A stretch of 64,000 bases of DNA from a virus. The stretch is from UHGV virus genome UHGV-0248979; one strand, given 5' to 3'. Position 1 is the first letter of the stretch. Each line of letters begins with the position of its first letter. The translations under genes were made by a program, and so were the position numbers. Shown here piece after piece: positions 1,598-64,000 of the stretch. The notes under the pieces were generated by a model, which was not told the DNA's origin, made no database searches, and was given only the letters and a program-made list of their open reading frames with translations.

Positions 1598-1628
1598 ACC
1601 CACCTCCATAAAGACGGAGTGTGGTGTA

Positions 1629-1673: not shown

Positions 1674-1678
1674 AAACG

Positions 1679-17082: not shown

Positions 17083-17095
17083 GGAGAATTTTTTG

Positions 17096-21277: not shown

Positions 21278-21315
21278 GACAGACTGCCTGCGGGCAGTTG
21301 TGTGTCCGTAGGTAA

Positions 21316-21352
21316 CCCCTCCCTGTAATGGGGAGGGGTATCCATTTTATTT
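21316..21352 (+). terminator. rho-independent terminator
   Basis: CCCCTCCC-TGTAAT-GGGGAGGGG hairpin followed by ATCCATTTTATTT. Confidence 0.6.
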
Positions 21353-21371
21353 AAAAGTAGGAGTCTTTACG

Positions 21372-24300: not shown

Positions 24301-26558
24301 ATCAAAAATCGGCTTATTTCATCGAAGCCGAATATGATAAAAATACGACCTATGGTTATCCTGGATACGCTGGTTTTGGACCAACATCCCGCCGTGTTGA
24401 AAAAACAGCGAACGAATACGGCATATTGACAAATATACCGCTGGTTGTTACGCCAGAAATACCGAAAGGTCTACTAGATGGGGCTTACTTTATCGGTGCT
24501 GAAAGTAAACCATGTAAAGTTGTTTACGGTACCACTACGGTGGCTAGTGATCGGTTGTCTATCGATGCGGCAGAATGGGCGAAGTTGACTAATATTGTTC
24601 AGTCCAGCCAGTTCTCTGGGGCATCTAACGGCAACGCCTATGAGCGGATTAGCGTAGCTAAGACCAAAAAGAACAACTACAGTTTGTCCTTTTGGGTGCT
24701 TGGTCAAACGATGTCTGGTGGTCCGCTTTGTATCGCGATAGTGAGTCTTATCTATAAAGACACTGACGGGGTAAATAAGTTTGCTTTTTACTTCTTTCAG
24801 GTAAAACCGACTATAACCAACGGGGTCATAAGGTTCGTTAGTTCGGAAGCGAGAATGATGACGTTCAGGGAAAAAGTGGCCAGTAACGCCATTAATCTCT
24901 CACCCACAGCTTTTAATGGTGAACTTAAACAACGCTCCGGTCAAGTTTTCCTTTATTCGCAAGACGGACAAAAGTTCAGATTCTCAATACATAACCTGGT
25001 TGGCGGGAATCTTGTAGGATCAGAGATTTCTTTTGCTTTTGGGATAAACTTGACTAAAAAAGGCGAATGGTTTACCGGCGAAATTCATCGGGCGTGGGGC
25101 TATACGTATACGCTGAATAATACATCTGAAGTCTATATACCCGATCTCTCGGGCATCGCGCTATTGACTTGTAACTCGGAAGATTTAAACGAGTTGTATC
25201 TCGGTGGCGAACAGTATAGAATCTCTGATTTGTTTAACAAAAAATATACTGTTATCGATAAGATTATTATTGGTGGCGTACAAACACAGAGCGGTTGGAA
25301 TTTCTATCTGACGGAGGAAACCGAGTTAAGTTTTGGAAATAAAAGATATACCGTTCCAAGATGGTCCGTTGATTTAAGCGATGAATTCCCGACCAATCAC
25401 GCTAACCAGACGTTCTACGTTTATGCTGAAGTGGTCGGTTCTACTGCCCAATACCGCATCGGTTTAGAGCAGTTAGCTGATACCTCGTCGAGACTGTTTG
25501 TTGGGACAGTAACCACTGATTCGAACCGTATTACGGATATCAGTATCGATAAAGTAAAACGGTTAGGTCGCGTAAAAGAGCTGGAAAATCATGCCTCGAT
25601 TGTTGATCAGCATGATGTGGCGCAGGCGTTCGACAGGAAAACTGGCCCACTATTAACGCTGGTTAATAAACCCGTTAAAGTCGTTACAGCATCTGCGAGC
25701 AAGGGTGCTGGGTATGTCGATGGTCAGAAATGGAATACGTTGTCCGGGATTACAACACGTTCCAGGTTGCCGGTACAGGAAACCTATTCAGGTTATAAAA
25801 GTATCAGCAGGGTGGCGTATGAGAACTGCGCTGACCAGTTCTGGCAGAAAGCGGTTGCTGCGAACGTTGCAGCGGCTACTGCTTCTGAGAACAAACAAGC
25901 AGCAACCGCGAACATGAAGTGGTTGGGCGCGTATACGAAACCGACTACTGGCGAGTATGCATATCTGGCATTGAGTCTGCGTGTTAAAGTACCTGGCGAT
26001 CCTGGTACTACTAATCGTCGACTGAAAATCAGGCTTGCGGCCCCGACAGGTATAACTCAAGTTCGTTACGGGCTAAATCAGTCTGGCGGTACGATGACTG
26101 AACAGACAGTAACGCTAACTGCTAACAGTTACCTGGAAAAAGAACACGCGGGATTTAAGCCAGCCGCCGAAGTCCGCCTTCATGCTACGTTTGTCATTCC
26201 AAAAAATGAATACGATAGTTACCGGACCAAATTTGGTGCTGTTCAGCTGATTGACGTTGAGACGAACACTGTCATTAAACAGACAGATATCGACACACCG
26301 TTTATCGTGTACACCGCCACAGAGCAAGCGGCACAATCTGGTTTGGTGTATAAAGCGGTTAAGAGTCAGTTTCGTCAACTCCCGGCTCAACCTGTCGTCA
26401 TTGTAACTGATGGACAGACAGGGACTACACCACCGGTGAAAACCGCGTTTTCTGACGGGACATTAACGGTCTACGTGGCAACCACGTACGATGCGGTTAA
26501 CCCAGCACAAACTCGCGATATCGATAAGCTCCAGTTCAATCTTATGTTTACATCTTAA
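21372..26558 (+). CDS. large virion structural-type protein (1728 aa)
   Basis: AGGAG RBS; shared N-terminal motif (EGPFYRIGLKLTV...GLDYYLGYYF). Confidence 0.55.
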   Translation: MPREDAAQFNGTLSTTTYPNRFNVVIPPEGPFYRIGLKLTVADDTAPNGRRTLIEGLDYYLGYYFKELAEAEQDQIYGGFMLLTATEIEYEILGVARQYRVPQSEIGKFLVRTDLKDPRNVDWSELMAYAPVIQPIDPPANLEEAILRDEVVKALNDIRKKIVQRSTELDAAFTEVTNLIYENGKKIFDEELYQHHLNPNAHQYTTNDVGALPVLGRAVDATKAFGLTIDQLATLMGSAGIEQSDVEQLMGEALGTVYGRWGTTNGNELTFKTPGGHIISIRGDKWLITSPQPLVIKADQDNNESGLAVEFSAGLNTLWVHSGSEQDVLAPVYNSVYLVTPEMVNMYLTSVTLLEANAYFKPSDTVKPYGTAKQSNPLTLNANIPTATESVYGVFSITNIATSVALGTAISQKAVTELKNRLDLYVDDDYTVNGKGFVKTGDNMVLTLTKADFGIDKMNNTAPIAKPVTKALANVLKNKSLKVHTHTTADLDNVPIGSATVDGILQLWDAIDTTNDKAVTSRQGWLFAKEIKKVSDKLNTLLPAWTTAGSKYTNNSILPILSMGNYEGYGKNMDALQMVIGVQQGKLYALISSKSALPGTEGIYYAVAGLKNDKSLGEIYKTTFRYKPKGLETNYPGVELKEITVTGTEAFIAKGSDDNYYLVKLNGSMDYTKHTDVRLVTFSEFVSETTWEFVPNMFMDRVVIADNGVYVLRTMLMADLKNNSLVDYIKDTPQPMFRVGLLRLNKTDRFEQVDLSSTRKIGKCADLVEPGAFDVDNPNTKRLAYFTAEGKALWTVNLQLTRGVSRWITPVVKDGHLLTVGVSGVCLGFSSTKGTTFGPWNGAYRLDLLTGEVGLETTNIFPIKIDTTGCYLKDGTKIELKWKWATRSSGYMADNRICVGDMVYSCCCSTEKQLAPSLHYQKLPEGVSYLDYVKLSVGYEGQSTFENRINPVVGSVWKPSMTFPLFFPGTNKVWLKHQKSAYFIEAEYDKNTTYGYPGYAGFGPTSRRVEKTANEYGILTNIPLVVTPEIPKGLLDGAYFIGAESKPCKVVYGTTTVASDRLSIDAAEWAKLTNIVQSSQFSGASNGNAYERISVAKTKKNNYSLSFWVLGQTMSGGPLCIAIVSLIYKDTDGVNKFAFYFFQVKPTITNGVIRFVSSEARMMTFREKVASNAINLSPTAFNGELKQRSGQVFLYSQDGQKFRFSIHNLVGGNLVGSEISFAFGINLTKKGEWFTGEIHRAWGYTYTLNNTSEVYIPDLSGIALLTCNSEDLNELYLGGEQYRISDLFNKKYTVIDKIIIGGVQTQSGWNFYLTEETELSFGNKRYTVPRWSVDLSDEFPTNHANQTFYVYAEVVGSTAQYRIGLEQLADTSSRLFVGTVTTDSNRITDISIDKVKRLGRVKELENHASIVDQHDVAQAFDRKTGPLLTLVNKPVKVVTASASKGAGYVDGQKWNTLSGITTRSRLPVQETYSGYKSISRVAYENCADQFWQKAVAANVAAATASENKQAATANMKWLGAYTKPTTGEYAYLALSLRVKVPGDPGTTNRRLKIRLAAPTGITQVRYGLNQSGGTMTEQTVTLTANSYLEKEHAGFKPAAEVRLHATFVIPKNEYDSYRTKFGAVQLIDVETNTVIKQTDIDTPFIVYTATEQAAQSGLVYKAVKSQFRQLPAQPVVIVTDGQTGTTPPVKTAFSDGTLTVYVATTYDAVNPAQTRDIDKLQFNLMFTS

Positions 26559-26598
26559 CGCCACGAGACAAGGACGTCTCGGATTAAGGAGAGTGGCC

Positions 26599-27798
26599 AT
26601 GGCCTCCATTGTATACCAATACCCTTTAGATTTAACGGGAACCCTAACCTCTAACGCCGTGGAGCGTCAGATTACGTTAGGTACAGGCAAAGTTAACCGT
26701 GCGTTTGCTTTCCCTGATGGTCCGTTTTATGCCGATACGTTCCGCTTGCGGGTTGCCAATCGACCTGGAGCGACATATGAGCGTGGAACGGACTATGAAC
26801 TGATTTTTGCACACCCGGCTTATGAGAAATTGACGAAGAACCGGGAAGTGGTAATGGCGGTTGTTGTAACGAACACCGCGATTCCGACCGATATCACGGT
26901 ATCGGCGCAAGTAGTTGGTGGTCCGCAGTCTGCAAATGTGACCGCGATTGAGCAAGCGATTGCCGAGTTGAAACTCGATAATCGAACTGTTGGCTTTAAA
27001 GACTTGCGAAATGTGCCGGACACGTTTCCTTCAGCACCAACGTATAAAGACGTCGGTGATATTTACGGCTTCGAATATATCATTACAGTGCTCGCTGGCA
27101 TTAAAGATGCGATAACTGCGGGTGATGCTGTACAGCTTGAGAACATCAAAGCGATTCTCGAAAGCCTGAAAAACGATTTCCTGGACGCGCTGAACGCGCA
27201 CATTAACTCCACTGGTAACGTCCACCATCTGGATATTCATCAGGTTAACGGGTTAACAGAAACGGAAATCCGCGCTTTAATTCGCAGTGTTCAGACAGCC
27301 ATTGATGCAACGATTGCCGATATCAATGCATTGAAGAAAGCGGACGTAGCGTTAGGAAAACGTATTGATGCCGTTGTCAAATCTCTGGAAGCGTGGAACG
27401 ACCAACTTAACGTCGTTGCACAAAACTACCAGAAAATGGCACTGGCAATGGCGAACCTAAACTCGTTAGTGTTACAGTTACAGAAAAATATCAACGATCT
27501 GAGCACCAAACTCAACCAAGCGATTCAACGTATTGCTGCGTTAGAGCAACGGGGTAATGAGACTGATCAGAAAATTGATAAACTGCAACAAAACCTGGAT
27601 GCGCTTAAACAACAGGTTGCGAATAACACGAACGCTATTAGTCAGGCGAATCAGAACCTACAAAACCACATTGCGGCGGATAATCCACACACAGGTTACC
27701 TGCACAAGAAATACGGTGGCGTGGTTCAGGCTTCAGTACACGTTAACGCTAACTTGACGTCCCGTGATGACGTTCAGGCAGAAGCAGGTACGAAATAA
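26599..27798 (+). CDS. fibrous coiled-coil protein (399 aa), fibritin/short-fiber-like
   Basis: Start moved to ATG 26599 (AAGGAGAG RBS); N-terminal shared motif DGPFYADTFRLRV...GTDYELIF; long heptad-like C-terminal half. Confidence 0.5.
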   Translation: MASIVYQYPLDLTGTLTSNAVERQITLGTGKVNRAFAFPDGPFYADTFRLRVANRPGATYERGTDYELIFAHPAYEKLTKNREVVMAVVVTNTAIPTDITVSAQVVGGPQSANVTAIEQAIAELKLDNRTVGFKDLRNVPDTFPSAPTYKDVGDIYGFEYIITVLAGIKDAITAGDAVQLENIKAILESLKNDFLDALNAHINSTGNVHHLDIHQVNGLTETEIRALIRSVQTAIDATIADINALKKADVALGKRIDAVVKSLEAWNDQLNVVAQNYQKMALAMANLNSLVLQLQKNINDLSTKLNQAIQRIAALEQRGNETDQKIDKLQQNLDALKQQVANNTNAISQANQNLQNHIAADNPHTGYLHKKYGGVVQASVHVNANLTSRDDVQAEAGTK

Positions 27799-31226: not shown

Positions 31227-32165
31227 ATGGACTCACCTGCAATGACAACCGACGTAGAGCCAAGGTTATCGAATCGTTTATACAATAAACCCACCGTATT
31301 GTCCGTAGTTGCTACATCCAAATGTAATCTGGACTGTAGCTTCTGCGGCGGAGCCTATTACATGCATCGTGAAGATTCTCCGCGAGAGTTTCAACGTGAA
31401 CGAATTTTGAAAGCGTTGGCGTCTAACCCAACCATTACTGAAATTCAGTGGACTGGCGGTGAACCGCTACTGGCAACTCGAAAGATTGAGGCGTTTGTCG
31501 ACGAATTAAAAACGATCCGTCCTGAACTCAAACACCAGATGTTCACGAACGGTTTAAAAATGCGTAAATCGCATCTACCGTTGTTAAAACAATTCGATGG
31601 TATATATGTTAGCATCGATGGGTTTAATCTTTCTGAACGGCCTTTTAAGCGCTTTATTGATGATAATTGTCATGAAGCGTTAGAAGTAATTTACAGCTTG
31701 AATAATGTTAACACCTGGGCTGTTGTTACGAGGGAGAATTTATCCAATAAAAGATGGCATGAAGATATCATTCAATTACATACTGCTATCTATCATTACG
31801 GTTTTCGTTCCATGTCCTTATTACTAGATAAAAACATGCCAAAACCGTTATCTCCCGATCACGTTATGAACTTTATTTACGGGTATTTTAGAATTCAGGA
31901 GAATATAGAAAGATTAAACGTTCTAAATTCTAGAGACTGCGGTTTTATTGTAAACAGATTCTTCGATCATGCTTGTAATGTCTGTAGCGAAAGTCTCAGG
32001 ATAGACGCGGACGGGGAAGAAAACCAACTTAAAAATGTACCAATAACTACAAAAGCAGGGTGTAACCAACTAGCCTCCTCAATAGGTGTAGAAGCTTACG
32101 AGTACATTCGTCGTGTAGTGATGGCAGAGCGTAATAGAGGGGCGGAAAATGAGTCAAGAAAATAG
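31227..32165 (+). CDS. radical SAM enzyme 2 (paralog of enzyme 1)
   Basis: CNLDCSFCGG motif; three blocks of identical nucleotide sequence shared with 28278..29192. Confidence 0.7.
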   Translation: MDSPAMTTDVEPRLSNRLYNKPTVLSVVATSKCNLDCSFCGGAYYMHREDSPREFQRERILKALASNPTITEIQWTGGEPLLATRKIEAFVDELKTIRPELKHQMFTNGLKMRKSHLPLLKQFDGIYVSIDGFNLSERPFKRFIDDNCHEALEVIYSLNNVNTWAVVTRENLSNKRWHEDIIQLHTAIYHYGFRSMSLLLDKNMPKPLSPDHVMNFIYGYFRIQENIERLNVLNSRDCGFIVNRFFDHACNVCSESLRIDADGEENQLKNVPITTKAGCNQLASSIGVEAYEYIRRVVMAERNRGAENESRK

Positions 32166-33471
32166 TTATCCTAAACAACTGACTTATCAAATTGTTACAA
32201 ATTTATCGTGTAACTTGGACTGTGAGTATTGTTACGAACGTAAGTATCCCCGTAATAACAAAGCGGCGGATATTGTTGATTTTCTACACGCTTGTTTTGA
32301 ACGAGATAAAGATCTGACAAACATCGAGGTCGTTATCGATATCATCGGTGGTGAGCCGTTTATTCAGCCTAAACTATTAAAGGCGGCATTTGAAACCGCA
32401 GAAGAGTTATGCGAAAAACATAATCGGCCGTTTATGTTTAGCATCTCTACTAACGGAACGTTGTTAGATAGACCTTTGAATAGAGAAATTATTGAACGTT
32501 GGAAAGACAGGCTGTCTATCGGCGTGTCTATTGATGGATTGCCCGAATCGCACGATAAGTACCGGATTTTTACAACAACTCGTGAAGGATCTTACGAGGC
32601 CGCTGTGCGGGGCTATAACTACTTAAAAGAAGTCGGTATTGCAGAACTTGGTGTAAAAGCGACCTTTACGTTGGAAACGTTACCGTTCTATGCTGCTGGA
32701 ATGAAATCATTAATTGATATTACTGGCGGCGGAACTATTTCTGGCAACGTAACCTTCGAAGACATTATGCCACGGAGCATGGCTACTTCAATCGCATTGC
32801 AGATGATGGACGTGGTAGATTATTGGGTTGAGAAGGGCTTACACACCAACCCACGTAACACTTTGTCGCACATCATTCCAGACGGGTTAGATTTTGATAC
32901 TATCTGGGAACCAAACTGGCGTGATCAGTTATTGTATAACGATACTGTACGTTTGAATCCAGAACGTTTACGCCCGTTCTGCGGTACGTTAACACACATG
33001 ACCTGCTTAGGATTTGATCGTAAGATCTTCGGTTGTAACCGTTTCATGTCAACCGTAACATCACGTTCTGCCGTATTTGAATTAGTTGGGCGGGAATTCG
33101 TTAGCTTAGATGACGGGAAATTGCTGGAAGAGATTCAGACGCAATACACCAACTATCCTGAAACCTGTTTAGGTTGTCCAATGAAGCACGCTTGTGGTAG
33201 TTGTGCGGCTGCATCTTACGAGAATGGAGAAGGGACGCTAGAAGATCGCAAAGCTTATCACGCTGAACGCCGTCAATGCGGCTGGACAACTGCAAAGTTG
33301 ATGGTTGCGGAATATTGGAAACAGAAAATGGGCACGACGTCAGTGAAAGATTTTCATGACAATAGCATGTGTTATTGCCCTCGTTGCGTACGTGAACGTA
33401 CCCAGAAAGAAAAACAATTGAGAGAAACCAAAGATGAAGCCAATTCTGATCCACAATATTACGAAGCGTAA
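32149..33471 (+). CDS. radical SAM enzyme 3 with C-terminal SPASM-like Cys-rich domain
   Basis: CNLDCEYC motif, GGEP motif, C-terminal CLGCPMKHACGSC and further Cys pairs resembling SPASM/twitch auxiliary cluster domain. Confidence 0.7.
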   Translation: MSQENSYPKQLTYQIVTNLSCNLDCEYCYERKYPRNNKAADIVDFLHACFERDKDLTNIEVVIDIIGGEPFIQPKLLKAAFETAEELCEKHNRPFMFSISTNGTLLDRPLNREIIERWKDRLSIGVSIDGLPESHDKYRIFTTTREGSYEAAVRGYNYLKEVGIAELGVKATFTLETLPFYAAGMKSLIDITGGGTISGNVTFEDIMPRSMATSIALQMMDVVDYWVEKGLHTNPRNTLSHIIPDGLDFDTIWEPNWRDQLLYNDTVRLNPERLRPFCGTLTHMTCLGFDRKIFGCNRFMSTVTSRSAVFELVGREFVSLDDGKLLEEIQTQYTNYPETCLGCPMKHACGSCAAASYENGEGTLEDRKAYHAERRQCGWTTAKLMVAEYWKQKMGTTSVKDFHDNSMCYCPRCVRERTQKEKQLRETKDEANSDPQYYEA

Positions 33472-47399: not shown

Positions 47400-49520
47400 T
47401 TAAATAACTACCCAGCTTTTACCATCGGAACCAATCTGCATTAGCGTAATACTTTCACTGGTATCAATGGGTTTGGCAAGACCTTCTGTCCCACTCTTTG
47501 GAGTGATGAGAACGTTTGAATTTTCCGGTTTAACGGTGATCTTACCAGCCTTATTTGCCACGATCTGAATATTTCTGCCCACGCTATATTCTAGATCAGG
47601 AATAGTAAGTTGGCCGCCACGGTTGGTGGGTGGGAAATACACATAAGACGACACATCTTCCTCAGATAACACTATGCTACCAGAATCACGATTGACCGAG
47701 ATCTCAAACTTAGAAATATCGATATCATAGGCAGTAACTTTCGTAATATCCGTCAGAACCAATTCGTTCAAATCGGTCTTAGCTGGACTGTTCGCCAGAT
47801 CAAATGGAGTACCATTCGTACCGTCCAGCACAGGTGTGACTGTGGTTTTATTGGCACCAGGATAAATGATTTCAAGCGTATGCCAGTTATTATCGTACGC
47901 ACCAAAAGTTCCTAATTTCGCATTTTGCTTTTTATGATGCATCAGATTAAGATTCGTAGCGTCGGTCTGTAAGAAAAAAGACATTAGGTACGGGTTCGTC
48001 TCAGCCACACCAGCGTCAGCAAATGTAGTACCAGAAGGTAGGTCGGACGCGGAAATACGCCAATAAAGTCCTAATCCGAAACGATCTGCTGCTAAATCAC
48101 CTTTTAGTCTAAAAGTAACGGTCAGACGTCCACCGTAACGTATCATGTCCGCAGCAGATGTCATTGACTTAGTTACATTCCAAGGTTTCATCTTTACAGC
48201 CTTTCTTAATTCGACGAAATGCCCGTTTCCATCCTCAGAATCTTGCACGGTTACGTTACAATCAACGATATTGTTCCAACCTTGCCCTTTCAGGGAACCA
48301 TCCCCACGACGTCCGTTATAACCCACAGACTCTACTAATGGGGTATAGCTTCTTACCACATTCTTATTGTCTTTGGAGCTCTTAGTGTCGTTCTTCGTCA
48401 GGAACATTGCACCAATCGCTGTTCTTGATAATATCTCGGCAGCTATTCTCTCTGAGATAATACCGCGTCGTGCCCAAGAACTGAAATGGCTATTCCTTGT
48501 TTCAGACGTCCAGTTTTTAACAGTACGGGAGGCAGCACCGTAATAGGCCGCACCAGTGATATCAGGATCGTCAGTGGGATCATTAGTCGGTACACGTTGG
48601 CCATTATCGTCGTACATGAATGGAACAAAAAAGATATTTTTTTGTTCATTGTTACGATAATTACCGTATACGGTTTCATATTGGGCAGGATATTTTTCCT
48701 TCCAATAATAGGTAGTGTCCCCGCAGATCCATGGTACTTCGGCGGTGTCGTACTCGGGCATCTGAGAGAGATGGTCAGAGAGATCAGTTCGGAAACGCTC
48801 TACCATTGCGTTAAATAACGCTGGTTGTTGTGCGTATTGTACTTTAGTCAGATCATACTCTCCCTGCATCCACACTACAGCCAAGAGTTTATTTTTAGGA
48901 TTAACTTCTAGAGCTTTTTTGGTCCGGCTAACTAAATCTTTATAAAGCGGTTTCTCCACCCCCCATAGCATTGACGACTCAGTGGCTCCTGTGGCTTCAT
49001 CGAAGGTACCTTCTGCACCACCCGTGAAAGCAGAACCGCCGCGTGCGCAGGGTACTAGTAAGATACCGGCGTTCTTAGGAATATACGGGAGAAGACGCTT
49101 CGCGATATGTAGACCTTGACCCACACATCCGTATTCACCTTTGCTCAAATTGGCATTGGGATGCGAGTATTTGGACATATCTTGCACGTCGTGCAGACAG
49201 TGATCCGCTGGAATGACGTCGTTATATTTACAATCAGCCCCATTAGGCGTTACCTTCGCACGGCGCGCCATCTGTTTAATTCGCGGATCGGGAGCGTCCA
49301 ACGTCGCCGGTAGAGGCAACCCTTCACCATAACTCATCGCATTAGATTGCCCGGCTATAGGAATCACGAAGTAATACTCCGGCTCCGTCGTGCCCTGAAG
49401 TTTTGCAATATCAATTTTATATTCTTTTTCTTCCTTAGAAAGAAGAACTAACGCACCTTTGAGATCGCCAGAGAAATTGTCGAGTTCATGGATACGTTTC
49501 TTTCCAATTGGCTGACTCAT
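47400..49520 (-). CDS. tail spike/fiber protein with SASA/SGNH-type carbohydrate esterase-like domain
   Basis: N-terminal 40 aa paralogous to the 1479-aa fiber N-terminus; IAGQSNAMSYGEG motif typical of sialate O-acetylesterase-like esterases; GGAGAG RBS. Confidence 0.6.
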   Translation of the reverse strand: MSQPIGKKRIHELDNFSGDLKGALVLLSKEEKEYKIDIAKLQGTTEPEYYFVIPIAGQSNAMSYGEGLPLPATLDAPDPRIKQMARRAKVTPNGADCKYNDVIPADHCLHDVQDMSKYSHPNANLSKGEYGCVGQGLHIAKRLLPYIPKNAGILLVPCARGGSAFTGGAEGTFDEATGATESSMLWGVEKPLYKDLVSRTKKALEVNPKNKLLAVVWMQGEYDLTKVQYAQQPALFNAMVERFRTDLSDHLSQMPEYDTAEVPWICGDTTYYWKEKYPAQYETVYGNYRNNEQKNIFFVPFMYDDNGQRVPTNDPTDDPDITGAAYYGAASRTVKNWTSETRNSHFSSWARRGIISERIAAEILSRTAIGAMFLTKNDTKSSKDNKNVVRSYTPLVESVGYNGRRGDGSLKGQGWNNIVDCNVTVQDSEDGNGHFVELRKAVKMKPWNVTKSMTSAADMIRYGGRLTVTFRLKGDLAADRFGLGLYWRISASDLPSGTTFADAGVAETNPYLMSFFLQTDATNLNLMHHKKQNAKLGTFGAYDNNWHTLEIIYPGANKTTVTPVLDGTNGTPFDLANSPAKTDLNELVLTDITKVTAYDIDISKFEISVNRDSGSIVLSEEDVSSYVYFPPTNRGGQLTIPDLEYSVGRNIQIVANKAGKITVKPENSNVLITPKSGTEGLAKPIDTSESITLMQIGSDGKSWVVI

Positions 49521-51482: not shown

Positions 51483-54400
51483 TTAATTCCCCTTGAGTTC
51501 TTTAAGCTCTTGGCGAAGAGTTTTCATGCCTTCTACTAACAACGCAATAACACCATTGTAATTTAGACGTAAACGTTTTTCGCCTGAAATGGCATCGTCG
51601 TCCTCGGACACAAGTTCAGGTAACGCTTCTAATGCGTCCTGAGCAATTAGACCTACAGAAGTCTGCCAACCGTCATCAGGATGCTGAATTTCGTACAAAT
51701 AACCGGTTAGTAACTCTAACCGATCCAAAGCTTTATCCAGCTTCACCAGATTACGTTTGTTACGACGGTCAGAACGAATCTGTACGTCGTTAAACGAACC
51801 GTTACCGTTGCCAGTAACGTTATGTCCAAAGTTTACTTGGCCGTTAGAATTATTAAAAGACAACGGGCGTAATCCGTTCCAGGAACCCGCTGCGGCTTGT
51901 CCGGCGTCGGTTACTAAGAAATAGGTATTGGCACCGTCGTTACGTAAAATAAAACCGTAGGTACCGTAAGCGATTCGAAAATCAGGGTATTTAGTGGCCA
52001 ATTTACCATTAACGGTTAAATCACCGCCTACAGTACCGCCCCCTGACGGTAACGCGCCCACTTCCGCAGCAGTTGGCTTGTTTCTCGTATTGTAAGCACG
52101 ACGCCAGCCTGGTGAGTATCCATCGCCGTTAAATACGTAGATAAACTCCGCATTAGTGAGTGCTCCGCCGACGCTCGTCGTTGTGGCGGTCGTTATACGG
52201 ATCGTGTAGTTGTTTGTGCTGTTGCCGTTACTAATGACTTCTATAACGGCCCCAGCTAACGGAATGACACCACAACCCGTCTCGCTGTGAGGTATGGACG
52301 CACTGGCGGCATAAGCCCACGCACAGCGAGCAACCCACGATCTTGTGGTAAATGCGCCGTTATTTTTCAATAACGTCACTAGCTGTGCTGTAGTTATTGC
52401 ACCGCCATTAGCGCCAGTTTCTAACCAACCACTAGGTGATGCCGGACAACCTATTTCGGCTGGCCCTAACGCTATATTTCTAGTGCCATCAAACGCAATA
52501 CCATTGATGGTTCTTGCGGTTTGCAACTTTGTTGCCGTGGCTGCGTTTCCGGTGGTCGACTGATTCCCTGTTTGGTTTACTCCAGGTAAACTGATGTCTT
52601 TAGTACCATCAAAAGCTACGCCACCTATATTTCGAGCAGTCTGTAGCTTAGTCGCTGTCGCCGCATTCCCCGTAGTCGATTGGTTACCGGTTTGGTTTAC
52701 ACCAGGAAGATTAACGTCTTTTGTCCCATCGAACACCACACCGCCGATCTTACGTGCGGTTTGTAACTTAGTAGCGGTCGCTGCATTACCTGTCGTATTC
52801 TGGTTGCCTTGCTGGTTAACGCCCGGTAAATTGATATCACCTGTACCGTCAAAGCTAACGCCTCCGATCCTGCGAGCGGTTTTCAGTTTCGTCGCGGTAG
52901 CGGCGTTGCCGGTAGTATCCTGATTACCTGTGGCATTTACACCAGGAATGCTATCACGGGCAGTATAAACTTGTGCCCAATCTGACCACGGCGCATCAGC
53001 AGTATCACGTCGACTACGAATATAAACGGGTGCGTGCGCACCGCTCGTCCCCGACCATCCGATTAACAGTTCCCCTTCGCCTAGCGCAGCAGAACCGCCC
53101 AAATGCAGTAAGTTACCATAAGCGGTTGGATAACCGTTATTGTAAACTTCGTACATCTGAATACCGGGTGTACCTTTGTTTGATCCAGTCAGTGCAGTAA
53201 CACGTCCACGTCCTACCAACGTGTTGATATTGATGTCTCTAGACCCATCAAATTTCACACCGTTGATGTTTCGAGCCGTTTGTAATTTGGTTGCGGTTCC
53301 CGCGTTCCCAGAGGTGTTTTGATTACCCTGTTGGTTTACACCAGGGAGGCTAATGTCTCCGCTACCGTCGAAACTTACACCGCCGATTAAACGGGCTGTT
53401 TTCAGTTTCGTTGCCGTAGCAGCATTGCCTGTTAACTCACCTGATAACCCTTTTGCAAAGGTCTGTTTTTCTGCCCACGTATGCGCTGCATTCAATACGG
53501 GCATCTGGCGGCTAGTAATAGTACGTTTACCCTTTTCACCAGCGACGCGAACAGCAAAGAAGCGATAGTTAGCAGTAGACACTGTACCACGCCAGACCAA
53601 CATACTCCGGCCAGTACCGGTGTCCTCCGACGCCCCTACAAGAATAGTAACCAAGTTACCGTCGATAACACCCCAATCCATTCCCGCAGGAATGTTTTTC
53701 ATGGTATTCAATGGTGTACTTATCATCTGGCCAGGAACGAAGTCGAAGGTTTGCCAGTCTAACGGATCTACCTTAGCAGCAACCCCACCGATCCCTAAAG
53801 CCAACGGGAGTGAATAGGATGTGAAAATCTCTCGCCATTCGCTCCAGGCATTTCCTGTACGAATTCGTTGGAACTTGCGACCTTTCGAAGTTGCGCCTGT
53901 ACCGTATGTGGTATAATTTTGTTCAACACCTGAACCGTCTAAGCGTAAGGTAACTTCGCAAACGCCTAGCAAGGTTGCGCCAGCAGAGTCTGTTAACGGA
54001 CCGTCTGTAGCCTCGCCGGTAACACTAAAGCGACCCGGTTTAGTTAAGTCGTTAAAGCTACCCTTATAGTAGGCACCGTCTACCTGATACCCAACCTGAA
54101 TCCAATCTTCCCACTGCGGATTAGACGAATCCCAAGTCGCAGTCAAACCACGGACATACATCGTACCACGACGAGTGGTGTAACGTTGTAAACGTCCATA
54201 AAGACCGCCTTCCATGACTTCTAATACGCCTTGCGCATTACCGCCCTCTTCAGGATAATGTCTGTCGAACACCGCTAACGAACTGGACGAGTTACGCCAG
54301 TTACCCATGTGCTCAGCGCCGCCTAAGGAGTTCAGATCGATCGATGTAGATAACGGGCGTACACCTGTAGTTACCATTCTCCACGGTGACCACGGGCCAT

Positions 54401-55922
54401 TAGTTCCGTTCCACGCGGCTGACAACATGCGGTTGTACACGTTACCATTACGGCAGGTAAAACGTTGCGCTCCACTGTAGTTGCCCGCTTTATACACTTC
54501 TAGATAACCTACCGCACCGTCTTCCGGGAAGTGTTTTGCTATTGATGCGTTTGTTGATGTCGACTTGGACCATGTTCCTGTGTAATTGGCATCTGGAGCA
54601 AATGTGTTAATATCAGCATCTGCGGGCATTTCACCACGGAAACGCAGATAGGTATCAGGAGATAGACCAATATTGCGAGCAAAGGTTTCTTTATTGGGGA
54701 TATCAGCACCGTTAGAGTTTTTCTGTAACGCAGAGTTCGCTTTATCTACAGTGGCTTTTAATCCCAAGAAATTGATGATATCCGCAGTTGTCCCTTTTGC
54801 TAACAAGGTTCTGGCGGTTTCTGTAAAGTCAGTTAACCCGACTTTATTAGTGCCAGTGAAATAAGGGAGCTTGTTTGCTGCGGTTGTGACTGCGGCAATA
54901 GCAGTAAGTAGTGGACTGATAGGTTGCTTCTGTGCAAGTTTCTCAGTAATCGTTGTTGCGAAGTTAGGGTCATTACCTAACGCCGTAGCTAATTCCGCTA
55001 AGGTATCTAACGTCTCAGGTGAAGAACCAACCAATTCCGCGATAGCAGCACGCACCCAGGCCGTTGTGGAGATGCTCGTGTCGTTCGAGTCCTTTGGGGG
55101 CGTTGGTGATGTCGGGTTACCCGTAAAATTCGGCGAATGTTTATCGGCTTTTAACTGTAATTCGTCGTTCAGCTGTTTAACCGTGGACGGTGTGGCAGCC
55201 TCCGTCACGGATTCGCTAGTCAGGGTATTGTTAAGTTTAACGATACCTTTACCGGTCGTACTAGCGTCAACTAAACCCTGTGCAGCGATTTTCTCCGCAC
55301 GCAGAGCGGCTGACTCCGAGCGTGTAGCTGCGCCTTCTGAGCTTTCTTTATCTTTCGTAACCTGCGCAGCAACCTTCTCCACCGCGCCCTTACTGGCCTC
55401 AATTGAAGCCGCAGTATTTGCGATACTGGTAGCGGTCTGTTGAACCTGTCCGGCCCGTTGCGTAACCGTTTCTGCTTTCTTAGTTACATCAGCCGCTACA
55501 GCTGTCACAGATTGTTCGCTTGCGGCGACAGCTTGAGCCTTCTCATTTACTGATTGTGAAACAGTATCTACGGCAGTTTTTGCTGCTAAAACTTCAGCGT
55601 GTTTTTTGTTAACCTCCGCAGTTTTAGTGGCGACGGTTCCCGCTTGCTCATTAACTGTGGAAGCTAAAGTGGTGGTCTGTTGCTTCGCTGTTTCTGCTAA
55701 ATCTTTAGCTTTCGTAGCTTCTGTTGCGGACTGTTGTGATTTGGCCGCAGCCGTTTGTGCATCAGCAACCGCACTTCTGACGGTGTCAATGTCCGCAACG
55801 ATCTCGCGGACTGGTAACTTATAATCTTTTTCGTCTTTCGAAAAAAGTAAAACGCCTTCACCGATATCCCCGGTGTACGGATGTAAGTCGTGTAAACGTA
55901 TTTTCTTTACCGCTTTAGCCAT
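51483..55922 (-). CDS. side tail fiber protein with C-terminal intramolecular chaperone (peptidase S74-like) domain
   Basis: Ala/Thr-rich coiled-coil N-terminal region, six 40-aa repeats GNAATATKLQTAR.IGGV.FDG, C-terminus SDRRNKRN...VGLIAQDALEALPELVSED matching the endosialidase/T5-type chaperone domain. Confidence 0.75.
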   Translation of the reverse strand: MAKAVKKIRLHDLHPYTGDIGEGVLLFSKDEKDYKLPVREIVADIDTVRSAVADAQTAAAKSQQSATEATKAKDLAETAKQQTTTLASTVNEQAGTVATKTAEVNKKHAEVLAAKTAVDTVSQSVNEKAQAVAASEQSVTAVAADVTKKAETVTQRAGQVQQTATSIANTAASIEASKGAVEKVAAQVTKDKESSEGAATRSESAALRAEKIAAQGLVDASTTGKGIVKLNNTLTSESVTEAATPSTVKQLNDELQLKADKHSPNFTGNPTSPTPPKDSNDTSISTTAWVRAAIAELVGSSPETLDTLAELATALGNDPNFATTITEKLAQKQPISPLLTAIAAVTTAANKLPYFTGTNKVGLTDFTETARTLLAKGTTADIINFLGLKATVDKANSALQKNSNGADIPNKETFARNIGLSPDTYLRFRGEMPADADINTFAPDANYTGTWSKSTSTNASIAKHFPEDGAVGYLEVYKAGNYSGAQRFTCRNGNVYNRMLSAAWNGTNGPWSPWRMVTTGVRPLSTSIDLNSLGGAEHMGNWRNSSSSLAVFDRHYPEEGGNAQGVLEVMEGGLYGRLQRYTTRRGTMYVRGLTATWDSSNPQWEDWIQVGYQVDGAYYKGSFNDLTKPGRFSVTGEATDGPLTDSAGATLLGVCEVTLRLDGSGVEQNYTTYGTGATSKGRKFQRIRTGNAWSEWREIFTSYSLPLALGIGGVAAKVDPLDWQTFDFVPGQMISTPLNTMKNIPAGMDWGVIDGNLVTILVGASEDTGTGRSMLVWRGTVSTANYRFFAVRVAGEKGKRTITSRQMPVLNAAHTWAEKQTFAKGLSGELTGNAATATKLKTARLIGGVSFDGSGDISLPGVNQQGNQNTSGNAGTATKLQTARNINGVKFDGSRDININTLVGRGRVTALTGSNKGTPGIQMYEVYNNGYPTAYGNLLHLGGSAALGEGELLIGWSGTSGAHAPVYIRSRRDTADAPWSDWAQVYTARDSIPGVNATGNQDTTGNAATATKLKTARRIGGVSFDGTGDINLPGVNQQGNQNTTGNAATATKLQTARKIGGVVFDGTKDVNLPGVNQTGNQSTTGNAATATKLQTARNIGGVAFDGTKDISLPGVNQTGNQSTTGNAATATKLQTARTINGIAFDGTRNIALGPAEIGCPASPSGWLETGANGGAITTAQLVTLLKNNGAFTTRSWVARCAWAYAASASIPHSETGCGVIPLAGAVIEVISNGNSTNNYTIRITTATTTSVGGALTNAEFIYVFNGDGYSPGWRRAYNTRNKPTAAEVGALPSGGGTVGGDLTVNGKLATKYPDFRIAYGTYGFILRNDGANTYFLVTDAGQAAAGSWNGLRPLSFNNSNGQVNFGHNVTGNGNGSFNDVQIRSDRRNKRNLVKLDKALDRLELLTGYLYEIQHPDDGWQTSVGLIAQDALEALPELVSEDDDAISGEKRLRLNYNGVIALLVEGMKTLRQELKELKGN
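52480..53450 (-). repeat. in-frame tandem repeats (about 120 nt unit, six copies in two blocks) inside the tail fiber gene
   Basis: Repeated peptide NQ.GNQ.T.GNAATATKLQTAR.I.GV.FDG..DI.LPGV; explains the spurious plus-strand ORFs here. Confidence 0.7.
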
Positions 55923-56777: not shown

Positions 56778-57152
56778 TCAGACCGTTAGTTCTCCACATA
56801 ACTCAACATCGATACCGAACGTCATTCCCACTTCTTGAAGTTTGTTCGCCAGTAGGTGACGATGACAAAACTTACCTGCAGGACAATAACACATCAAAAC
56901 CAGGTCTTCGTGTCTGAGTAACGACACTAAAACTTCGGCATCGGCATCTAACAGTCGTTCGAGTTTGTACAAATACTTTATCGTGTATTCACGCTCAGCG
57001 GCAGCGTCTTGGGCAGAATTTTTATACGCCATTAGGAAATCCCAGTCGGGGGCGAGTTCCTTTCGCCCTGACTTCACGGTGATATCCACCGCGTGAAATC
57101 CTTTCTGCTTAGCTAACCGCCACTTAGCGAGTTGTAGCGTCCAGATACGCAT
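56778..57152 (-). CDS. DUF488-like protein
   Basis: LVLMCYCPAGKFCHRHLLANKL matches the C.C.....CHR..LA signature I recall for DUF488. Confidence 0.4.
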   Translation of the reverse strand: MRIWTLQLAKWRLAKQKGFHAVDITVKSGRKELAPDWDFLMAYKNSAQDAAAEREYTIKYLYKLERLLDADAEVLVSLLRHEDLVLMCYCPAGKFCHRHLLANKLQEVGMTFGIDVELCGELTV

Positions 57153-58077: not shown

Positions 58078-58770
58078 TTAGTAATCCTCTTCCTGATTGA
58101 CCACCGATTGAATACGGGTTGCGACTTCGTTAGTGTCCAGATCAGTTTCGTCTACCTTATCCACAAGTTTCTGCACTTTACGTACATGGGATTCGGTAAC
58201 ATCAAAACGACCACGATCGGCTAACAGCAACGTTACCATATCCTTACGCGTAACCATCAGTTCTTCTTCAGGTAGGTGTAGGGATTTGTCTAACAGCCCA
58301 GAATGCATGAAGTTTTCCAGTAAGCGTTCTTCTCCCTGGTCGAAATCATAACGTTCGTTAGGTGCAGCAACAAAAGCATAACCGAAGTAGTTTTCTTCTG
58401 TCTCACGTAGCGATTTAATGATTTTGTCACCATGTTGGCAGAAATCACTTAACGTGTAGTCGTCAAGCGTTGCAACGATGGTTTCTGCTTGTACACCGTT
58501 ATCTGTTTCGTACAGATGCGCAACCCAAAGTTTCCAGTTACGCGGTTCGTCAAACAAACCACCGATTAACATATCAGTCGCTGCCATGCGCATACGCGGT
58601 GACGTTGTAAACTGGAAACCACGGCCCGCGTACGGGCCGATAGGACGAATAGAGCTACCGACGAAAGTAATGCGGTTTAACGCATTTTCAGCAATGGTGT
58701 GCGCGGTACGGTTAGCAGCCGCTTTCGGGTTATACTTTTTGTTACGAGGTTTCTTTTGTTTGGTAGCCAT
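58078..58770 (-). CDS. hypothetical protein (230 aa)
   Basis: ORF track. Confidence 0.5.
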   Translation of the reverse strand: MATKQKKPRNKKYNPKAAANRTAHTIAENALNRITFVGSSIRPIGPYAGRGFQFTTSPRMRMAATDMLIGGLFDEPRNWKLWVAHLYETDNGVQAETIVATLDDYTLSDFCQHGDKIIKSLRETEENYFGYAFVAAPNERYDFDQGEERLLENFMHSGLLDKSLHLPEEELMVTRKDMVTLLLADRGRFDVTESHVRKVQKLVDKVDETDLDTNEVATRIQSVVNQEEDY

Positions 58771-59252
58771 TATTTATTCTCAACTAATACTGTGTGAAAT
58801 GCTTTATAAAGAGCCTGTCGTGCCTCAATTAATACTGGACGATTAATCAAGCACATGTATCCGATTTTCCAAGACCAGTAAGACGTGTCGTCGGTGTTTA
58901 GCCCGTAATCAGGTTCAAGATATACCAAATCCGTGTATGCGTCCGGTATATAAAGACGACACAAACTAAGATTCCAAAAATTAGGTAAATCCGACTTTGC
59001 AAGTTCGGACATAACCTGCATTGGAAGCTGGCTTCCGATACCATCTGTTGCAAAAACAATATGCAAGTTTCCTGGCGATTTAGAATACATACCGTGGCCT
59101 TCACAGCTCCACATTGTCGCCAGATGCGGATGGTCGTTGATTAGTTTACAGGTATCACGAACACCTTTTTCAATATAGCCGTTTTTAACTGCAAACTGAG
59201 CACGGTCTTTAAATGACGCCAATCTTTCTGCGTCAACAGAAAATTGAATCAT
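58770..59252 (-). CDS. hypothetical protein (160 aa)
   Basis: ORF track. Confidence 0.5.
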   Translation of the reverse strand: MIQFSVDAERLASFKDRAQFAVKNGYIEKGVRDTCKLINDHPHLATMWSCEGHGMYSKSPGNLHIVFATDGIGSQLPMQVMSELAKSDLPNFWNLSLCRLYIPDAYTDLVYLEPDYGLNTDDTSYWSWKIGYMCLINRPVLIEARQALYKAFHTVLVENK

Positions 59253-59758: not shown

Positions 59759-60280
59759 CTACGGGTTAAAAGGTAACGGCTTGCAGTCCCGCTTTTTCAA
59801 CTCCTCTACTAGCTCAGGTAATGTACACCAACGTTTAAATTTGTTGTTGGCTTTAAAGTGACTAAGAATTTCCTCTACACGTTCAATCGACCACTTCCCT
59901 TTACCCACGTTATCTAAATCTTTACGTAGCGAGAGCGTCTCAATGGTAAACGCTAATTCAGAACTGTCCGAGTGGTCGTACAGCAGTCTTACCGGTGCGG
60001 GATGATGTAGCGTAACGCGCCAACCTGACTCCTTAGTCCAGTAGACATCTTTAATTCGGCCACTGGCGTCAATTACGGAACTGATATAAGTCCAATCGGT
60101 ATCCAATTTGTTCTTTTCGGCGGTTAATGCATCTTCTAATCGTAAAGAGTTAGGGGACGGAATCCACCAACCGTACTTACCGTAATAATCGTCTATTACG
60201 GTAATACCTTCGTAATACAAATATTGTGTTTTTGTATTAACAAATAATTCATCGCCGATTAAAACCGCATTTATCTTCAT
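59759..60280 (-). CDS. hypothetical protein (173 aa)
   Basis: ORF track. Confidence 0.5.
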   Translation of the reverse strand: MKINAVLIGDELFVNTKTQYLYYEGITVIDDYYGKYGWWIPSPNSLRLEDALTAEKNKLDTDWTYISSVIDASGRIKDVYWTKESGWRVTLHHPAPVRLLYDHSDSSELAFTIETLSLRKDLDNVGKGKWSIERVEEILSHFKANNKFKRWCTLPELVEELKKRDCKPLPFNP

Positions 60281-60768
60281 CGTAAACCCTTCCTGTAAAA
60301 CAAGTCGTAAGTGGTCGAGCTAAACGGATCAATAGAACCTACCAATGGCATAATTTTCTTTTCTGATATTCCAGTTGCCCAAGCAGCCCGCGCAAATCCT
60401 CCACCAGAACCCGTTGCCCAAACCGCATTTTTATTTATTACAAACGTTTTAAACTTATCTGCCACTAATGTCAGCCAATGTGTTTCTCTAACCGTAAAAA
60501 TGACTATTTGATCGAATATTCGCTCTTTTTCGAAAAGATCTGCAAGCAAGGGCTCAACTTTCTGACGTTTATCCTCGTCTAAATATTCTTCTATAGCAGC
60601 GGTAATCGATATTTTCCAAAATTCGGTGTCCAGTACAAGTTCTCCCGTGTAGAAAACAAACTTGTTTTTGTGTTTGTGCAGTTTGGGCAATTCTTTAACC
60701 GTGCCACCATAATCCACAAGTCGGTCAGCTAAAATGTAATCGTTTGTTACTAAAACTGTTGTCATCAT
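60277..60768 (-). CDS. HslV/proteasome-beta-like Ntn hydrolase homolog
   Basis: Start moved to ATG 60768 (GAGGTG RBS, downstream of terminator); N-terminus MMTTVLV with Thr after Met and ATGSGGGFARAA resemble HslV (TTIVSV...GSGGPYAQAA). Confidence 0.45.
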   Translation of the reverse strand: MMTTVLVTNDYILADRLVDYGGTVKELPKLHKHKNKFVFYTGELVLDTEFWKISITAAIEEYLDEDKRQKVEPLLADLFEKERIFDQIVIFTVRETHWLTLVADKFKTFVINKNAVWATGSGGGFARAAWATGISEKKIMPLVGSIDPFSSTTYDLFYRKGLR

Positions 60769-60777
60769 ACACCTCGA

Positions 60778-60817
60778 AGAAAAATAAAAGTACCCTCTCT
60801 CCGTTAGGAGAGAGGGG
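60778..60817 (-). terminator. rho-independent terminator
   Basis: CCCTCTCTCC-GTTA-GGAGAGAGGGG hairpin plus T-tract on minus strand. Confidence 0.6.
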
Positions 60818-61867: not shown

Positions 61868-62374
61868 TTACAGTACGTTTTCTTCGCGATCGTCTACTAA
61901 CACAGAAGTAATCACATAACGCGCTAAGCGATTACGTGCTTCTTCCGTTTCTTCTTCAGAAGGTAACTGTTCGCCCGCAGGCGCACACAACGTTAGCCCA
62001 GACTCACGAAGCTGTTCGGCATAGTCTTCCACGGCTGCGTCGAACGTACCACGAATACCTGCTACCGCATCCATAATTTCGTCGTTCGGAATAATGGATT
62101 CTTTTAGCACAGCGTGAGCATCTGTAGGCTCCACCATTTGCAGGTTCTGTTCTACCAGCAATGCCTGTTTCGCTAAGCTGTCTGTGATAAAGCAAGACAG
62201 AATCTTTTCGAAATCGTCTAACGAGAATTCTGTGTCTTCAGATGCCCCGGTAATCAATTGCCCGTAGCGATTAAAGAATTCTTTACAACGTGTTTCGTAG
62301 TCAGCTTCTAAGTCGCGAACACCGAGATCAAAATCGTGCTGCTCCAGCTGATTAAAATCCAGAGTCTCTTTCAT
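61868..62374 (-). CDS. acidic hypothetical protein (168 aa)
   Basis: ORF track; very Asp/Glu-rich. Confidence 0.5.
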   Translation of the reverse strand: MKETLDFNQLEQHDFDLGVRDLEADYETRCKEFFNRYGQLITGASEDTEFSLDDFEKILSCFITDSLAKQALLVEQNLQMVEPTDAHAVLKESIIPNDEIMDAVAGIRGTFDAAVEDYAEQLRESGLTLCAPAGEQLPSEEETEEARNRLARYVITSVLVDDREENVL

Positions 62375-62649: not shown

Positions 62650-63423
62650 TTAAAAGATAAAATGACCAGTTAATGCTTCTGCCTCAACACCAGGCATCGA
62701 TGGAGGTGCTGAATATGGAAAAGTAAGACGCACGGTTGCGCCCTTTAAATACGCAATACGGTAGTACGTGGTCAAGAGCGCATTCCCGTAAGTACAATCG
62801 TTATAGAAGAAACCTTCGGTGGCAAACGTCTTTTCGTTGATTTTCGAATAGACTAAGATACCTTCAACTTTACCATCTTTACGGCAGCACAAACCTTCTG
62901 CTGCACCAATCGCTAACAATTCCAGGCAGCGCGTATCCAAGCTGACATTAACCACCTTAGTGATCGTAAACGTTTCTTCTAACGTTAGAGATTCAATATC
63001 ATCTACATCAGGCAAATCGGTGCGAACTTCAGGTTTTTCAGTAAACGTCAGCTCATAATCGATGAACGACGGCTGCATACGCAAGAACGCCATTAACTGA
63101 TCGCGACGTTTTAGGTCATTGGCAGGGTATGTGACATCAAACACCTCCACATCTAACAAACGTTTGAGTTGTGCGAAATTAATTTTCTTCTTCGCAAACA
63201 CAACGATTGCCGACATGTAGAAAATCTTACCATCGGCGCGACCGGAGAAGACACATTGCAGCTGATTCGTGTTCGAAAGAATGATAAAGGTCGGATCTTC
63301 AGATTCGCGAATGATGTCTTTTTCCATCAACCCTTTTCGTAGACGGGTTAGCGAAACTATTCTACCACCCACACCAATTGCTAAATGGTCATTACGATAA
63401 TCGTCAATATCCACTATACGCAT
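62650..63423 (-). CDS. hypothetical protein (257 aa)
   Basis: ORF track. Confidence 0.5.
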   Translation of the reverse strand: MRIVDIDDYRNDHLAIGVGGRIVSLTRLRKGLMEKDIIRESEDPTFIILSNTNQLQCVFSGRADGKIFYMSAIVVFAKKKINFAQLKRLLDVEVFDVTYPANDLKRRDQLMAFLRMQPSFIDYELTFTEKPEVRTDLPDVDDIESLTLEETFTITKVVNVSLDTRCLELLAIGAAEGLCCRKDGKVEGILVYSKINEKTFATEGFFYNDCTYGNALLTTYYRIAYLKGATVRLTFPYSAPPSMPGVEAEALTGHFIF

Positions 63424-64000
63424 TAGAGCACTCCCAGTAATTCAGTCACCGTTTTCCGAGTAGCGCCAGACGCACCCATATAGCGACCGACCTCAATACT
63501 ACGCCACTTAAAACCGTAATAAATTTCTCGGGTGAGCAGGGTGTCTGCATTTGACAACACGACACTGTTGCCACGTTCCACCTGCTGCTGTAGTAACTTG
63601 GCCAATTCACGATGATCCGTTTGTGAGAATTCTTTACGGTGGTATTGCGCATGTTTCGCAGTATCCGATAACGGAATATACGGAGGATCAGCATAAATCA
63701 CAGCATCCTCAGGTGTCCGTGCTAATACAGAACGAAAGTCCTCACAAACAATTTCCAGATAATCAACTTCCGCACAACGTTTAGCCCAATCCCGAATTTC
63801 TTCTAATGGATAATAAACCCCATTCGGGTAACGTCCAAACGGAACATTGAACCCACCGCTACTGTTATAGCGACACATACCGTTATAACCGTGACGCATT
63901 AAGTATAAAAACATCGCAGCACGCTCAACTTCTGACATCGATTTACCGCTATTAAACAGCTCACGACGCTCCATATACTTTACAGTGGCATTACCGTCTA
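63423..64000 (-). CDS. dam: Dam-type DNA N6-adenine methyltransferase, C-terminal portion (5' end beyond window)
   Basis: IYADPPYIPLSDTAKHAQYH (DPPY motif), LSNADTLLTREIY and GASGATRKTVTELL closely resemble E. coli Dam as recalled; ORF open to window edge. Confidence 0.7.
   Translation of the reverse strand, partial: DGNATVKYMERRELFNSGKSMSEVERAAMFLYLMRHGYNGMCRYNSSGGFNVPFGRYPNGVYYPLEEIRDWAKRCAEVDYLEIVCEDFRSVLARTPEDAVIYADPPYIPLSDTAKHAQYHRKEFSQTDHRELAKLLQQQVERGNSVVLSNADTLLTREIYYGFKWRSIEVGRYMGASGATRKTVTELLGVL

Follow-up and report, generated by a model that had tools for sequence, protein, structure and literature searches.

A predicted proteasome-type N-terminal-threonine peptidase and the loss of its neighbouring HslU-like gene in a Salmonella-associated jumbo-phage lineage

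This analysis focused on one gene of the virus genome UHGV-0248979, located at positions 60277–60765 (minus strand) of a 64,000-nucleotide stretch, the whole of which is referred to here as the window. The gene probably specifies a proteasome-type N-terminal-threonine (Ntn) peptidase subunit of the PHROG 1040 family, one that would act as a stand-alone enzyme or with a partner that is not encoded adjacent to it. The evidence consists of sequence homology, the fold predicted for the protein, conserved residues and the genomic neighbourhood, and the stand-alone or non-adjacent-partner arrangement is favoured because the neighbouring HslU-like ATPase gene of sister phages is gone here while purifying selection still acts on the peptidase gene. 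Points of interest are an apparently complete proteasome-like catalytic network and the lost neighbouring HslU-like gene.

The first-pass annotation had described the product as a phage-encoded, HslV/proteasome-beta-like Ntn hydrolase, pointing to a Thr-Thr pair after the Met and to a GSGG segment followed by A.AA. Both features are present in the translation, which from position 60768 of the minus strand reads MMTTVLVT...ATGSGGGFARAAWA..., with GSGG at residues 119–122 of the HslV-like protein, and the description was borne out by profile searches, profile–profile alignment, a confident structural model, fold searches and a conserved catalytic set. PHROG 1040 ("peptidase HslV family") matches residues 2–160 (E 1.8e-9) and also matches all 21 aligned relatives, with a best E of 1.9e-22. 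Proteins of 25–30% identity were found by tblastn in jumbo phages of Erwinia, Cronobacter and Salmonella, where the homologues are annotated as 'peptidase HslV family' or 'HslV-like protease', the former label being that of RefSeq for several of them. Since an exhaustive HMMER scan of 1.84 billion representative proteins recovered only 19 representatives (almost all starting MTT, and nearly all of 159–186 aa), the phage HslV-like family is small. Against PDB sequences, the family profile matched Trypanosoma brucei HslV (4HNZ) with E 8e-7 over 142 of 160 positions, then the Methanocaldococcus jannaschii proteasome beta subunit (E 0.0056), and almost all weaker matches were likewise HslV or beta subunits. 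When the phage family was aligned to seven HslV sequences with hhalign, a probability of 95% and an E of 3.9e-8 were obtained over 142 aligned columns. Judged from these profile comparisons, the resemblance to HslV and proteasome beta subunits is not a product of chance. It is visible only by PHROGs and family profiles and not by single-sequence searches: phmmer with the single sequence against the PDB returned unrelated, chance-level matches alone, and BLASTP against Escherichia coli HslV gave E 0.063, confined to the GSGG region. The search against HslV/proteasome-beta profiles that had been proposed as a check gave a split result, positive for PHROG 1040 and the family profile but negative for Pfam PF00227 and the NCBIfam HslV models; among 21 family members, PF00227 (Proteasome) produced a sub-threshold match in one (E 0.13). 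No paralogue of the HslV-like peptidase was found in the 64-kb window.

Structure prediction, another of the checks proposed, agreed with the profile evidence. Supplied with a diverse alignment of 21 sequences, AF2 returned a monomer model with a pLDDT of 94.2 and a pTM of 0.88 (with few and closely related sequences in the alignment, the pLDDT was 40 and the model was set aside). The order of elements is six N-terminal strands, helices at 48–62 and 64–79, four strands, helices at 122–130 and 135–145, and a last strand, with the two helix pairs flanking the strands, so that the model shows the alpha-beta-beta-alpha Ntn sandwich of MEROPS family T1. The top 50 Foldseek matches in the PDB were all HslV, proteasome beta or BPH, the best being T. 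brucei HslV (4HO7; E 4.8e-8, TM 0.66), and a fold search of BFVD gave 40 viral proteins at E<=1e-3, many of them from jumbo phages and some named proteasome subunit or ATP-dependent protease subunit. An Ntn fold could also serve an enzyme that is not a compartmentalised protease, such as a sequence-specific processing enzyme, a connectase-like transpeptidase/ligase or an amidase, acting in monomeric or small oligomeric form on a single phage or host target. Many proteasome homologues may indeed differ from the proteasome in quaternary structure and activity (PMC8665760), and there is no partner ATPase here, but the best fold matches are HslV, beta subunits and BPH throughout, both of the ring-contact helix pairs (H1/H2 and H3/H4) are in the model, the first of which is missing from archaeal connectase, and the full set of residues proposed for the proteasome-type network is conserved. 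An enzyme of that kind is considered improbable.

The residue network was read from an alignment of 21 diverse members, 23–33% identical to the window protein. Thr2, Asp14, Lys28, Gly119, Gly121 and Asp146 are invariant in all 21, positions 120 and 149 are always Ser or Thr, and the catalytic residues are also invariant in 45 full-length homologues with identities down to 67%. Thr2 (codon 60760–60762, minus strand, as are all codons that follow) is the predicted N-terminal nucleophile, becoming Thr1 after Met removal. Asp14 (60724–60726) corresponds to Asp17 of HslV and proteasome beta in both the hmmsearch alignment to 4HNZ and the hhalign alignment, and Lys28 (60682–60684) is paired by hhalign with Lys33 of E. 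coli HslV and, in a weak alignment, with Lys33 of the Thermoplasma acidophilum beta subunit. A Thr at the predicted mature N-terminus together with equivalents of Asp17 and Lys33, as in MEROPS family T1, was therefore found. Gly119-Ser120-Gly121 (codons 60403–60411) align to the GSGG of HslV, the G-S-G-G of the phage protein matching G123-S124-G125-G126, and Ser120 would correspond to Ser129 of the proteasome. Further on, Asp146-Pro-Phe-Ser149 (60319–60330) forms a D-x-x-[ST] motif, opposite which the alignments place D-V-F-S in T. brucei HslV and C159...T162 in E. coli HslV; the spacing of the motif is that of proteasome Asp166/Ser169, the pair to which it is proposed to correspond. Ser129, Asp166 and Ser169 make up the second catalytic network of the proteasome (Huber et al. 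2016, PMC4792962). Most members also have a Gly near position 41, which may be compared with Gly47 of the oxyanion hole, but its alignment shifts.

A proteasome-type mechanism can be proposed on this basis. Translation would begin at the second of two ATG codons, and host methionine aminopeptidase would remove the Met to expose Thr1, as with the M-T-T of cellular HslV; removal of the initiator by this enzyme is favoured by a small P1' residue. Thr1 would then be the nucleophile, activated by Lys28 and Asp14 in the manner of the Lys33/Asp17 triad, and its amino group would be tuned by Ser120 and by Asp146/Ser149, as in the Ser129/Asp166/Ser169 network. With HslV, BPH and 20S beta subunits as models, proteolytic activity would most likely require assembly into a homo-oligomer of stacked rings, the active sites being enclosed within it. 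In this lineage the enzyme would most likely work without a phage unfoldase, either alone, as has been proposed for BPH, or with some other partner.

The reading frame itself had been placed at 60277–60768, and the open reading frame stands at these coordinates, but its start does not. In two related IMG/VR contigs (L002 and L003), the first ATG (60768–60766) is replaced by GTG and GCG, respectively, and the second (60765) is kept in both. A Shine-Dalgarno-like GAGGTG (60770–60775, minus strand), identical in L002 and L003, lies 6 nt, counted from GAGG, 5' of the conserved ATG, and each of the 45 full-length homologues in the databases is annotated with 162 aa and an MTT start. Because the first ATG varies and the second is conserved, and because the spacing of the ribosome-binding site and the length of the homologues agree with it, the true start is the second ATG, giving a gene of 162 codons plus stop (60277–60765, stop codon included) that begins MTTVLVTNDYILADR. 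A longer, 200-aa version starting at an upstream GTG (60879) was rejected, as the added stretch contains a terminator hairpin, a T-run and the ribosome-binding site; Machina, moreover, has a stop codon three codons 5' of its ATG. The hairpin in question (60783–60816, minus strand) was detected by a pattern scan between an upstream 89-aa gene and the HslV-like gene, has a stem of 10 bp with seven G-C pairs followed by a T-run, and folds as RNA with -27.6 kcal/mol (z -3.9). It looks like an intrinsic terminator of the preceding 89-aa gene. Upstream of the HslV-like genes of L001, L002, L003 and L005 the stem is conserved and the loop variable (TAAC, GTTT, TAGC), and a comparable hairpin and T-run stand 5' of the homologous gene in the Erwinia phages EarlPhillipIV and Machina.

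A dN/dS of 0.107 was obtained for the gene against a 73%-identical relative, indicating purifying selection. This bears on the idea that the gene is a remnant in decay, left over from an HslV-like/HslU-like pair and without function since the HslU-like gene was lost. The missing HslU-like gene would fit such a history, and so would the variant protein P0048, encoded on a 1.9-kb contig outside the window, which is 149 aa long and has lost its GSG...ARAAW segment through a 13-residue deletion; this allele may be inactive, or the deletion may be an artefact of assembly. However, a dN/dS of about 0.1, the invariance of the catalytic residues among the 45 full-length homologues, the conservation of the ribosome-binding site and upstream terminator, and the presence of an intact gene on many independent contigs of about 224 kb are hardly expected of a remnant. 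Conservation as read from these sequences weighs strongly against this explanation, which is regarded as very improbable.

The phage origin of the gene, also claimed by the first-pass annotation, is clear from its surroundings. The window encodes baseplate and virion proteins together with a long tail fibre, further genes specify a SASA-esterase/DUF6645 protein, a radical-SAM protein, a Dam methylase and an SbcC-like nuclease subunit, and its nearest relatives are jumbo phages of the SPN3US/phiEaH2 type. For a conserved virion protein, identity to Salmonella phage SPN3US is about 48%, and it reaches 52% at best in the Erwinia phages Stratton, phiEaH2 and Asesino; no match to the region turned up when 50,697 phage genomes were searched by megablast. 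The window is 93–95% identical to an IMG/VR contig of 220,786 bp, and close homologues of the HslV-like protein, with the gene intact, occur on many contigs of about 222–226 kb, of which several belong to Salmonella enterica assemblies at NCBI. From these comparisons the window is assigned to an uncultured, Salmonella-associated jumbo-phage lineage related to SPN3US and phiEaH2. As a separate observation, the contigs of about 224 kb that carry homologues P0008, P0016 and P0030 are found inside assemblies of S. enterica isolates (serovars Javiana, Dublin and Enteritidis), which suggests that the phage travels with cultured isolates, whether by a carrier state, pseudolysogeny or contamination.

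In sister phages, an HslU-like AAA+ gene lies 2–3 kb 3' of the HslV-like gene. This applies to EarlPhillipIV/Derbicus, Phobos, CR5, Machina, pSal-SNUABM-04 and uncultured Derbicus-type contigs, and phage genes of this kind were located at L001:8596-10650, L005:4992-6728, L006:3992-5752 and L008:3980-5689. Their products are 578–689 aa long, match PF07724 and carry, at the place of the I-domain of HslU, a very large insertion that separates Walker A from Walker B. The paper on pSal-SNUABM-04 (PMC7823757) reports HslV genes and states that HslU is absent; the HslU-like gene is present in that genome, as detected by tblastn, under the annotation "putative DnaA". In phage RAY, the HslU-like protein localises to the phage nucleus (bioRxiv 10.1101/2023.02.24.529968). 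The window keeps the synteny of this region, with genes like gp121 (61868–62374), gp125 (58078–58770) and gp131 (56778–57152), and at the syntenic site there is no remnant of the HslU-like gene or of its 346-aa neighbour, and likewise none in L002 and L003. No AAA+/HslU-like ORF was found in the 64-kb window by tblastn or phmmer with EarlPhillipIV gp129 or by Walker-A patterns, the one P-loop found being SbcC-like. Searches beyond the window agree: in an IMG/VR scan for the gp129-type partner, two contigs of the window lineage were not among the matches listed, and in a profile search of 5.8 billion proteins the best 8000 candidates included no gp129-type protein on the lineage's contigs of about 220–226 kb, all such proteins being on Derbicus-, CR5- or Machina-type contigs. 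On this comparison of gene content, the lineage has lost the neighbouring HslU-like gene yet keeps the peptidase gene.

Since a phage ATPase is absent here, use of a host unfoldase has to be considered, and it was already raised by the first-pass annotation, which suggested that the peptidase could hijack host HslU or act in defence evasion. The phage protein was compared with bacterial and mitochondrial HslV (ClpQ; MEROPS T1B; PDB 1M4Y, 1G3I, 1NED, 4HNZ), which as the partner of HslU is a dodecamer built from two hexameric rings and is activated by the C-terminal tails of HslU. The two share a compact size, without the C-terminal helix H5, an M-T-T N-terminus without propeptide, and the alignment of phage Asp14, Lys28 and GSGG with Asp17, Lys33 and GSGG of HslV. 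They differ in that identity is only about 20%, that HslV Lys28 and residues 66–78 fall in hhalign gaps, that the phage family does not conserve the motifs G45-F-A-G...A-D-A...L and A75-V-E-x-A-K-x-W-R-x-D, which do not vary in cellular HslV, that the phage protein has a proteasome-like Asp where E. coli HslV has Cys159, and that no hslU adjoins the phage gene. Because curated models miss it, the HslV-invariant motifs are absent or gapped, and an adjoining hslU is lacking, the window protein is not a canonical HslV. The same features bear on docking to host HslU, or to another AAA+ unfoldase such as ClpX, by which the phage peptidase would form a hybrid ATP-dependent protease and redirect host proteolysis. 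In favour of this, the Salmonella host encodes HslU, HslV is the closest solved structure, and the lineage maintains the peptidase under purifying selection with no phage HslU-like gene. Against it are the low identity, the gap at Lys28, the fact that related phages encode their own HslU-like ATPase and the lack of conservation of the H1/H2 motifs, since this region of HslV holds the HslU-tail pocket residues F54, F57, A79 and K80 (PMC6429459). Docking of this sort is judged unlikely. It is likewise a speculative proposal, and an unlikely one, that the orphan peptidase has been rewired, either as an unfoldase-independent viral mini-proteasome or by docking on a host AAA+ protein (HslU/ClpX), to degrade specific host proteins such as stress or defence factors. 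As for defence evasion, PADLOC gave no match for the HslV-like protein or for nine neighbouring genes, and a defence-related role is therefore without support.

Several points weigh against the reading of the gene as a proteasome-type peptidase subunit that acts alone or with a non-adjacent partner. The window protein has no Pfam match even at E<=10, PF00227 included, and in NCBIfam it has no match to an HslV model, just a sub-threshold match to an unrelated one. Its TM-scores to solved HslV are just 0.6–0.66, and the equation of Asp146/Ser149 with Asp166/Ser169 comes from alignment, motif and position. The link between HslV-like and HslU-like genes in relatives is one of proximity alone, with four to five genes between them, and the phage HslU-like proteins have variable, hydrophilic C-terminal tails (TLRKTLRG, STLRKK, LDKERIC, GTLVNN). 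Cellular HslU ends in a hydrophobic [FY]-[IL]-[IL] docking tail (PMC6429459), and because the phage tails are unlike it, canonical HslU–HslV docking is doubtful even in the sister phages. The absence of an HslU-like gene from the whole genome is supported indirectly, by database searches, 64 kb of the genome of about 224 kb having been read directly.

The closest known system is the PHROG 1040 family of phages, which includes gp123 of Erwinia phage vB_EamM_EarlPhillipIV (YP_009278435.1), a protein of Cronobacter phage CR5, gp125 of Erwinia phage Machina and ORF116 of Salmonella phage pSal-SNUABM-04. The window protein belongs to the same HMM family and length class, has the same MTT start, shares the D-R, K, G[ST]G and D-x-x-[ST] motifs, and lies in the same gene order (gp121-, gp125- and gp131-like neighbours, with a short gene directly 3'), but is just 25–30% identical to the cultured members and represents an uncultured Salmonella-associated lineage of about 224 kb whose proteins are unannotated. 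Compared to the Derbicus-type phages, the module in the window is without both the gp129-type HslU-like AAA+ gene and a gp119-type BCS1-like AAA gene. The latter, encoding a BCS1_N + AAA protein of 464–481 aa, is found a few genes 5' of the HslV-like gene in Derbicus-type loci (L090:759-2204, L092:1682-3076 and L001:3335-4783), and is absent from the window and from the 10 kb upstream in L002 and L003. Phage proteasome homologues were surveyed bioinformatically in 2021 and placed in the groups PPH, AAH and CPH (Fuchs, Alva & Lupas, PMC8665760). These groups and BPH (PDB 5OVS/5OVU), for none of which an unfoldase is known, have in common with the window protein a compact, Group-I-like Ntn subunit, and the three groups also its occurrence in phages. 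PPH proteins are of about 140 residues with helix H2 missing (PMC8665760), a description that sets them apart from the window protein, which has 162 aa and a model with both H1 (48–62) and H2 (64–79). A likeness to BPH is that no partner ATPase is evident in this phage genome; a difference is that BPH has a long acidic pore loop, whereas the loop from H2 to the next strand is short in the window protein (residues 80–85).

The gene directly downstream (59759–60280, minus strand) specifies a 173-aa protein of PHROG 25529 with no assigned function. It overlaps the stop codon of the HslV-like gene by 4 nt (ATGA), and this overlap suggests that the two genes may be translationally coupled. A gene of 175–190 aa occupies the same position after the HslV-like gene in EarlPhillipIV (gp124), CR5 and Machina (gp126), and a weak BFVD fold match was to a 182-aa Derbicus protein equal in size to gp124. 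The possibility that the downstream gene encodes a second, inactive proteasome-like subunit was rejected on the basis of alignments, hhalign giving a probability of 0.2% against the phage family and HslV, and no match being found in the PDB. A gene at 58770–59252 (minus strand) encodes a 160-aa protein of PHROG 7413, with a sub-threshold Pfam match to the N-terminus of TYW3 methyltransferase (E 0.0039) that is probably due to chance.

Other parts of the window show features of their own. At 12760–27798 (plus strand) there are four consecutive, paralogous virion structural proteins of 1440, 1394, 1728 and 435 aa, three of them giant, which share PHROGs 7557, 8078, 7449 and 2163 and are typical of SPN3US/phiKZ-like jumbo phages. 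Two host-recognition genes, at 47400–49520 and 51483–55922 (both minus strand), stand amid genes that are otherwise syntenic with Derbicus; the product of one, 706 aa in length, has DUF6645 and a sialate O-acetylesterase (SASA) domain, and that of the other is a long tail fibre of 1479 aa in which a Gp34 trimerisation domain is combined with an intramolecular chaperone domain of the S74 type. The radical-SAM protein (PHROG 1802) is encoded at 32149–33471 (plus strand), and the D12-class, Dam-like adenine methyltransferase, in which only the C-terminal part of the Pfam model was matched, at 63423–63974 (minus strand). The gene of the SbcC-like nuclease subunit (2–1678, minus strand) runs off the start of the window.

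The finding is less new than the first-pass annotation implied, because RefSeq and PHROGs already label homologues as 'peptidase HslV family' and because phage proteasome homologues were covered by the survey in PMC8665760. In a genome scan it would otherwise be ordinary, a correct remote-homology call for a family already labelled, and the gene is a further member of an annotated but experimentally uncharacterised phage family. Phage proteasome-type peptidases have been annotated, and were catalogued in 2021, with none characterised, and this gene, well sampled and strongly conserved, joins them from a jumbo-phage lineage associated with Salmonella. Should the speculation about a rewired orphan peptidase be true, it would be the first functionally defined viral proteasome-type protease. 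The sister phages also provide a natural experiment, the same peptidase occurring with and without a neighbouring phage HslU-like ATPase, and such a contrast could help to find out whether an unfoldase is needed at all by HslV-like proteins of viruses.

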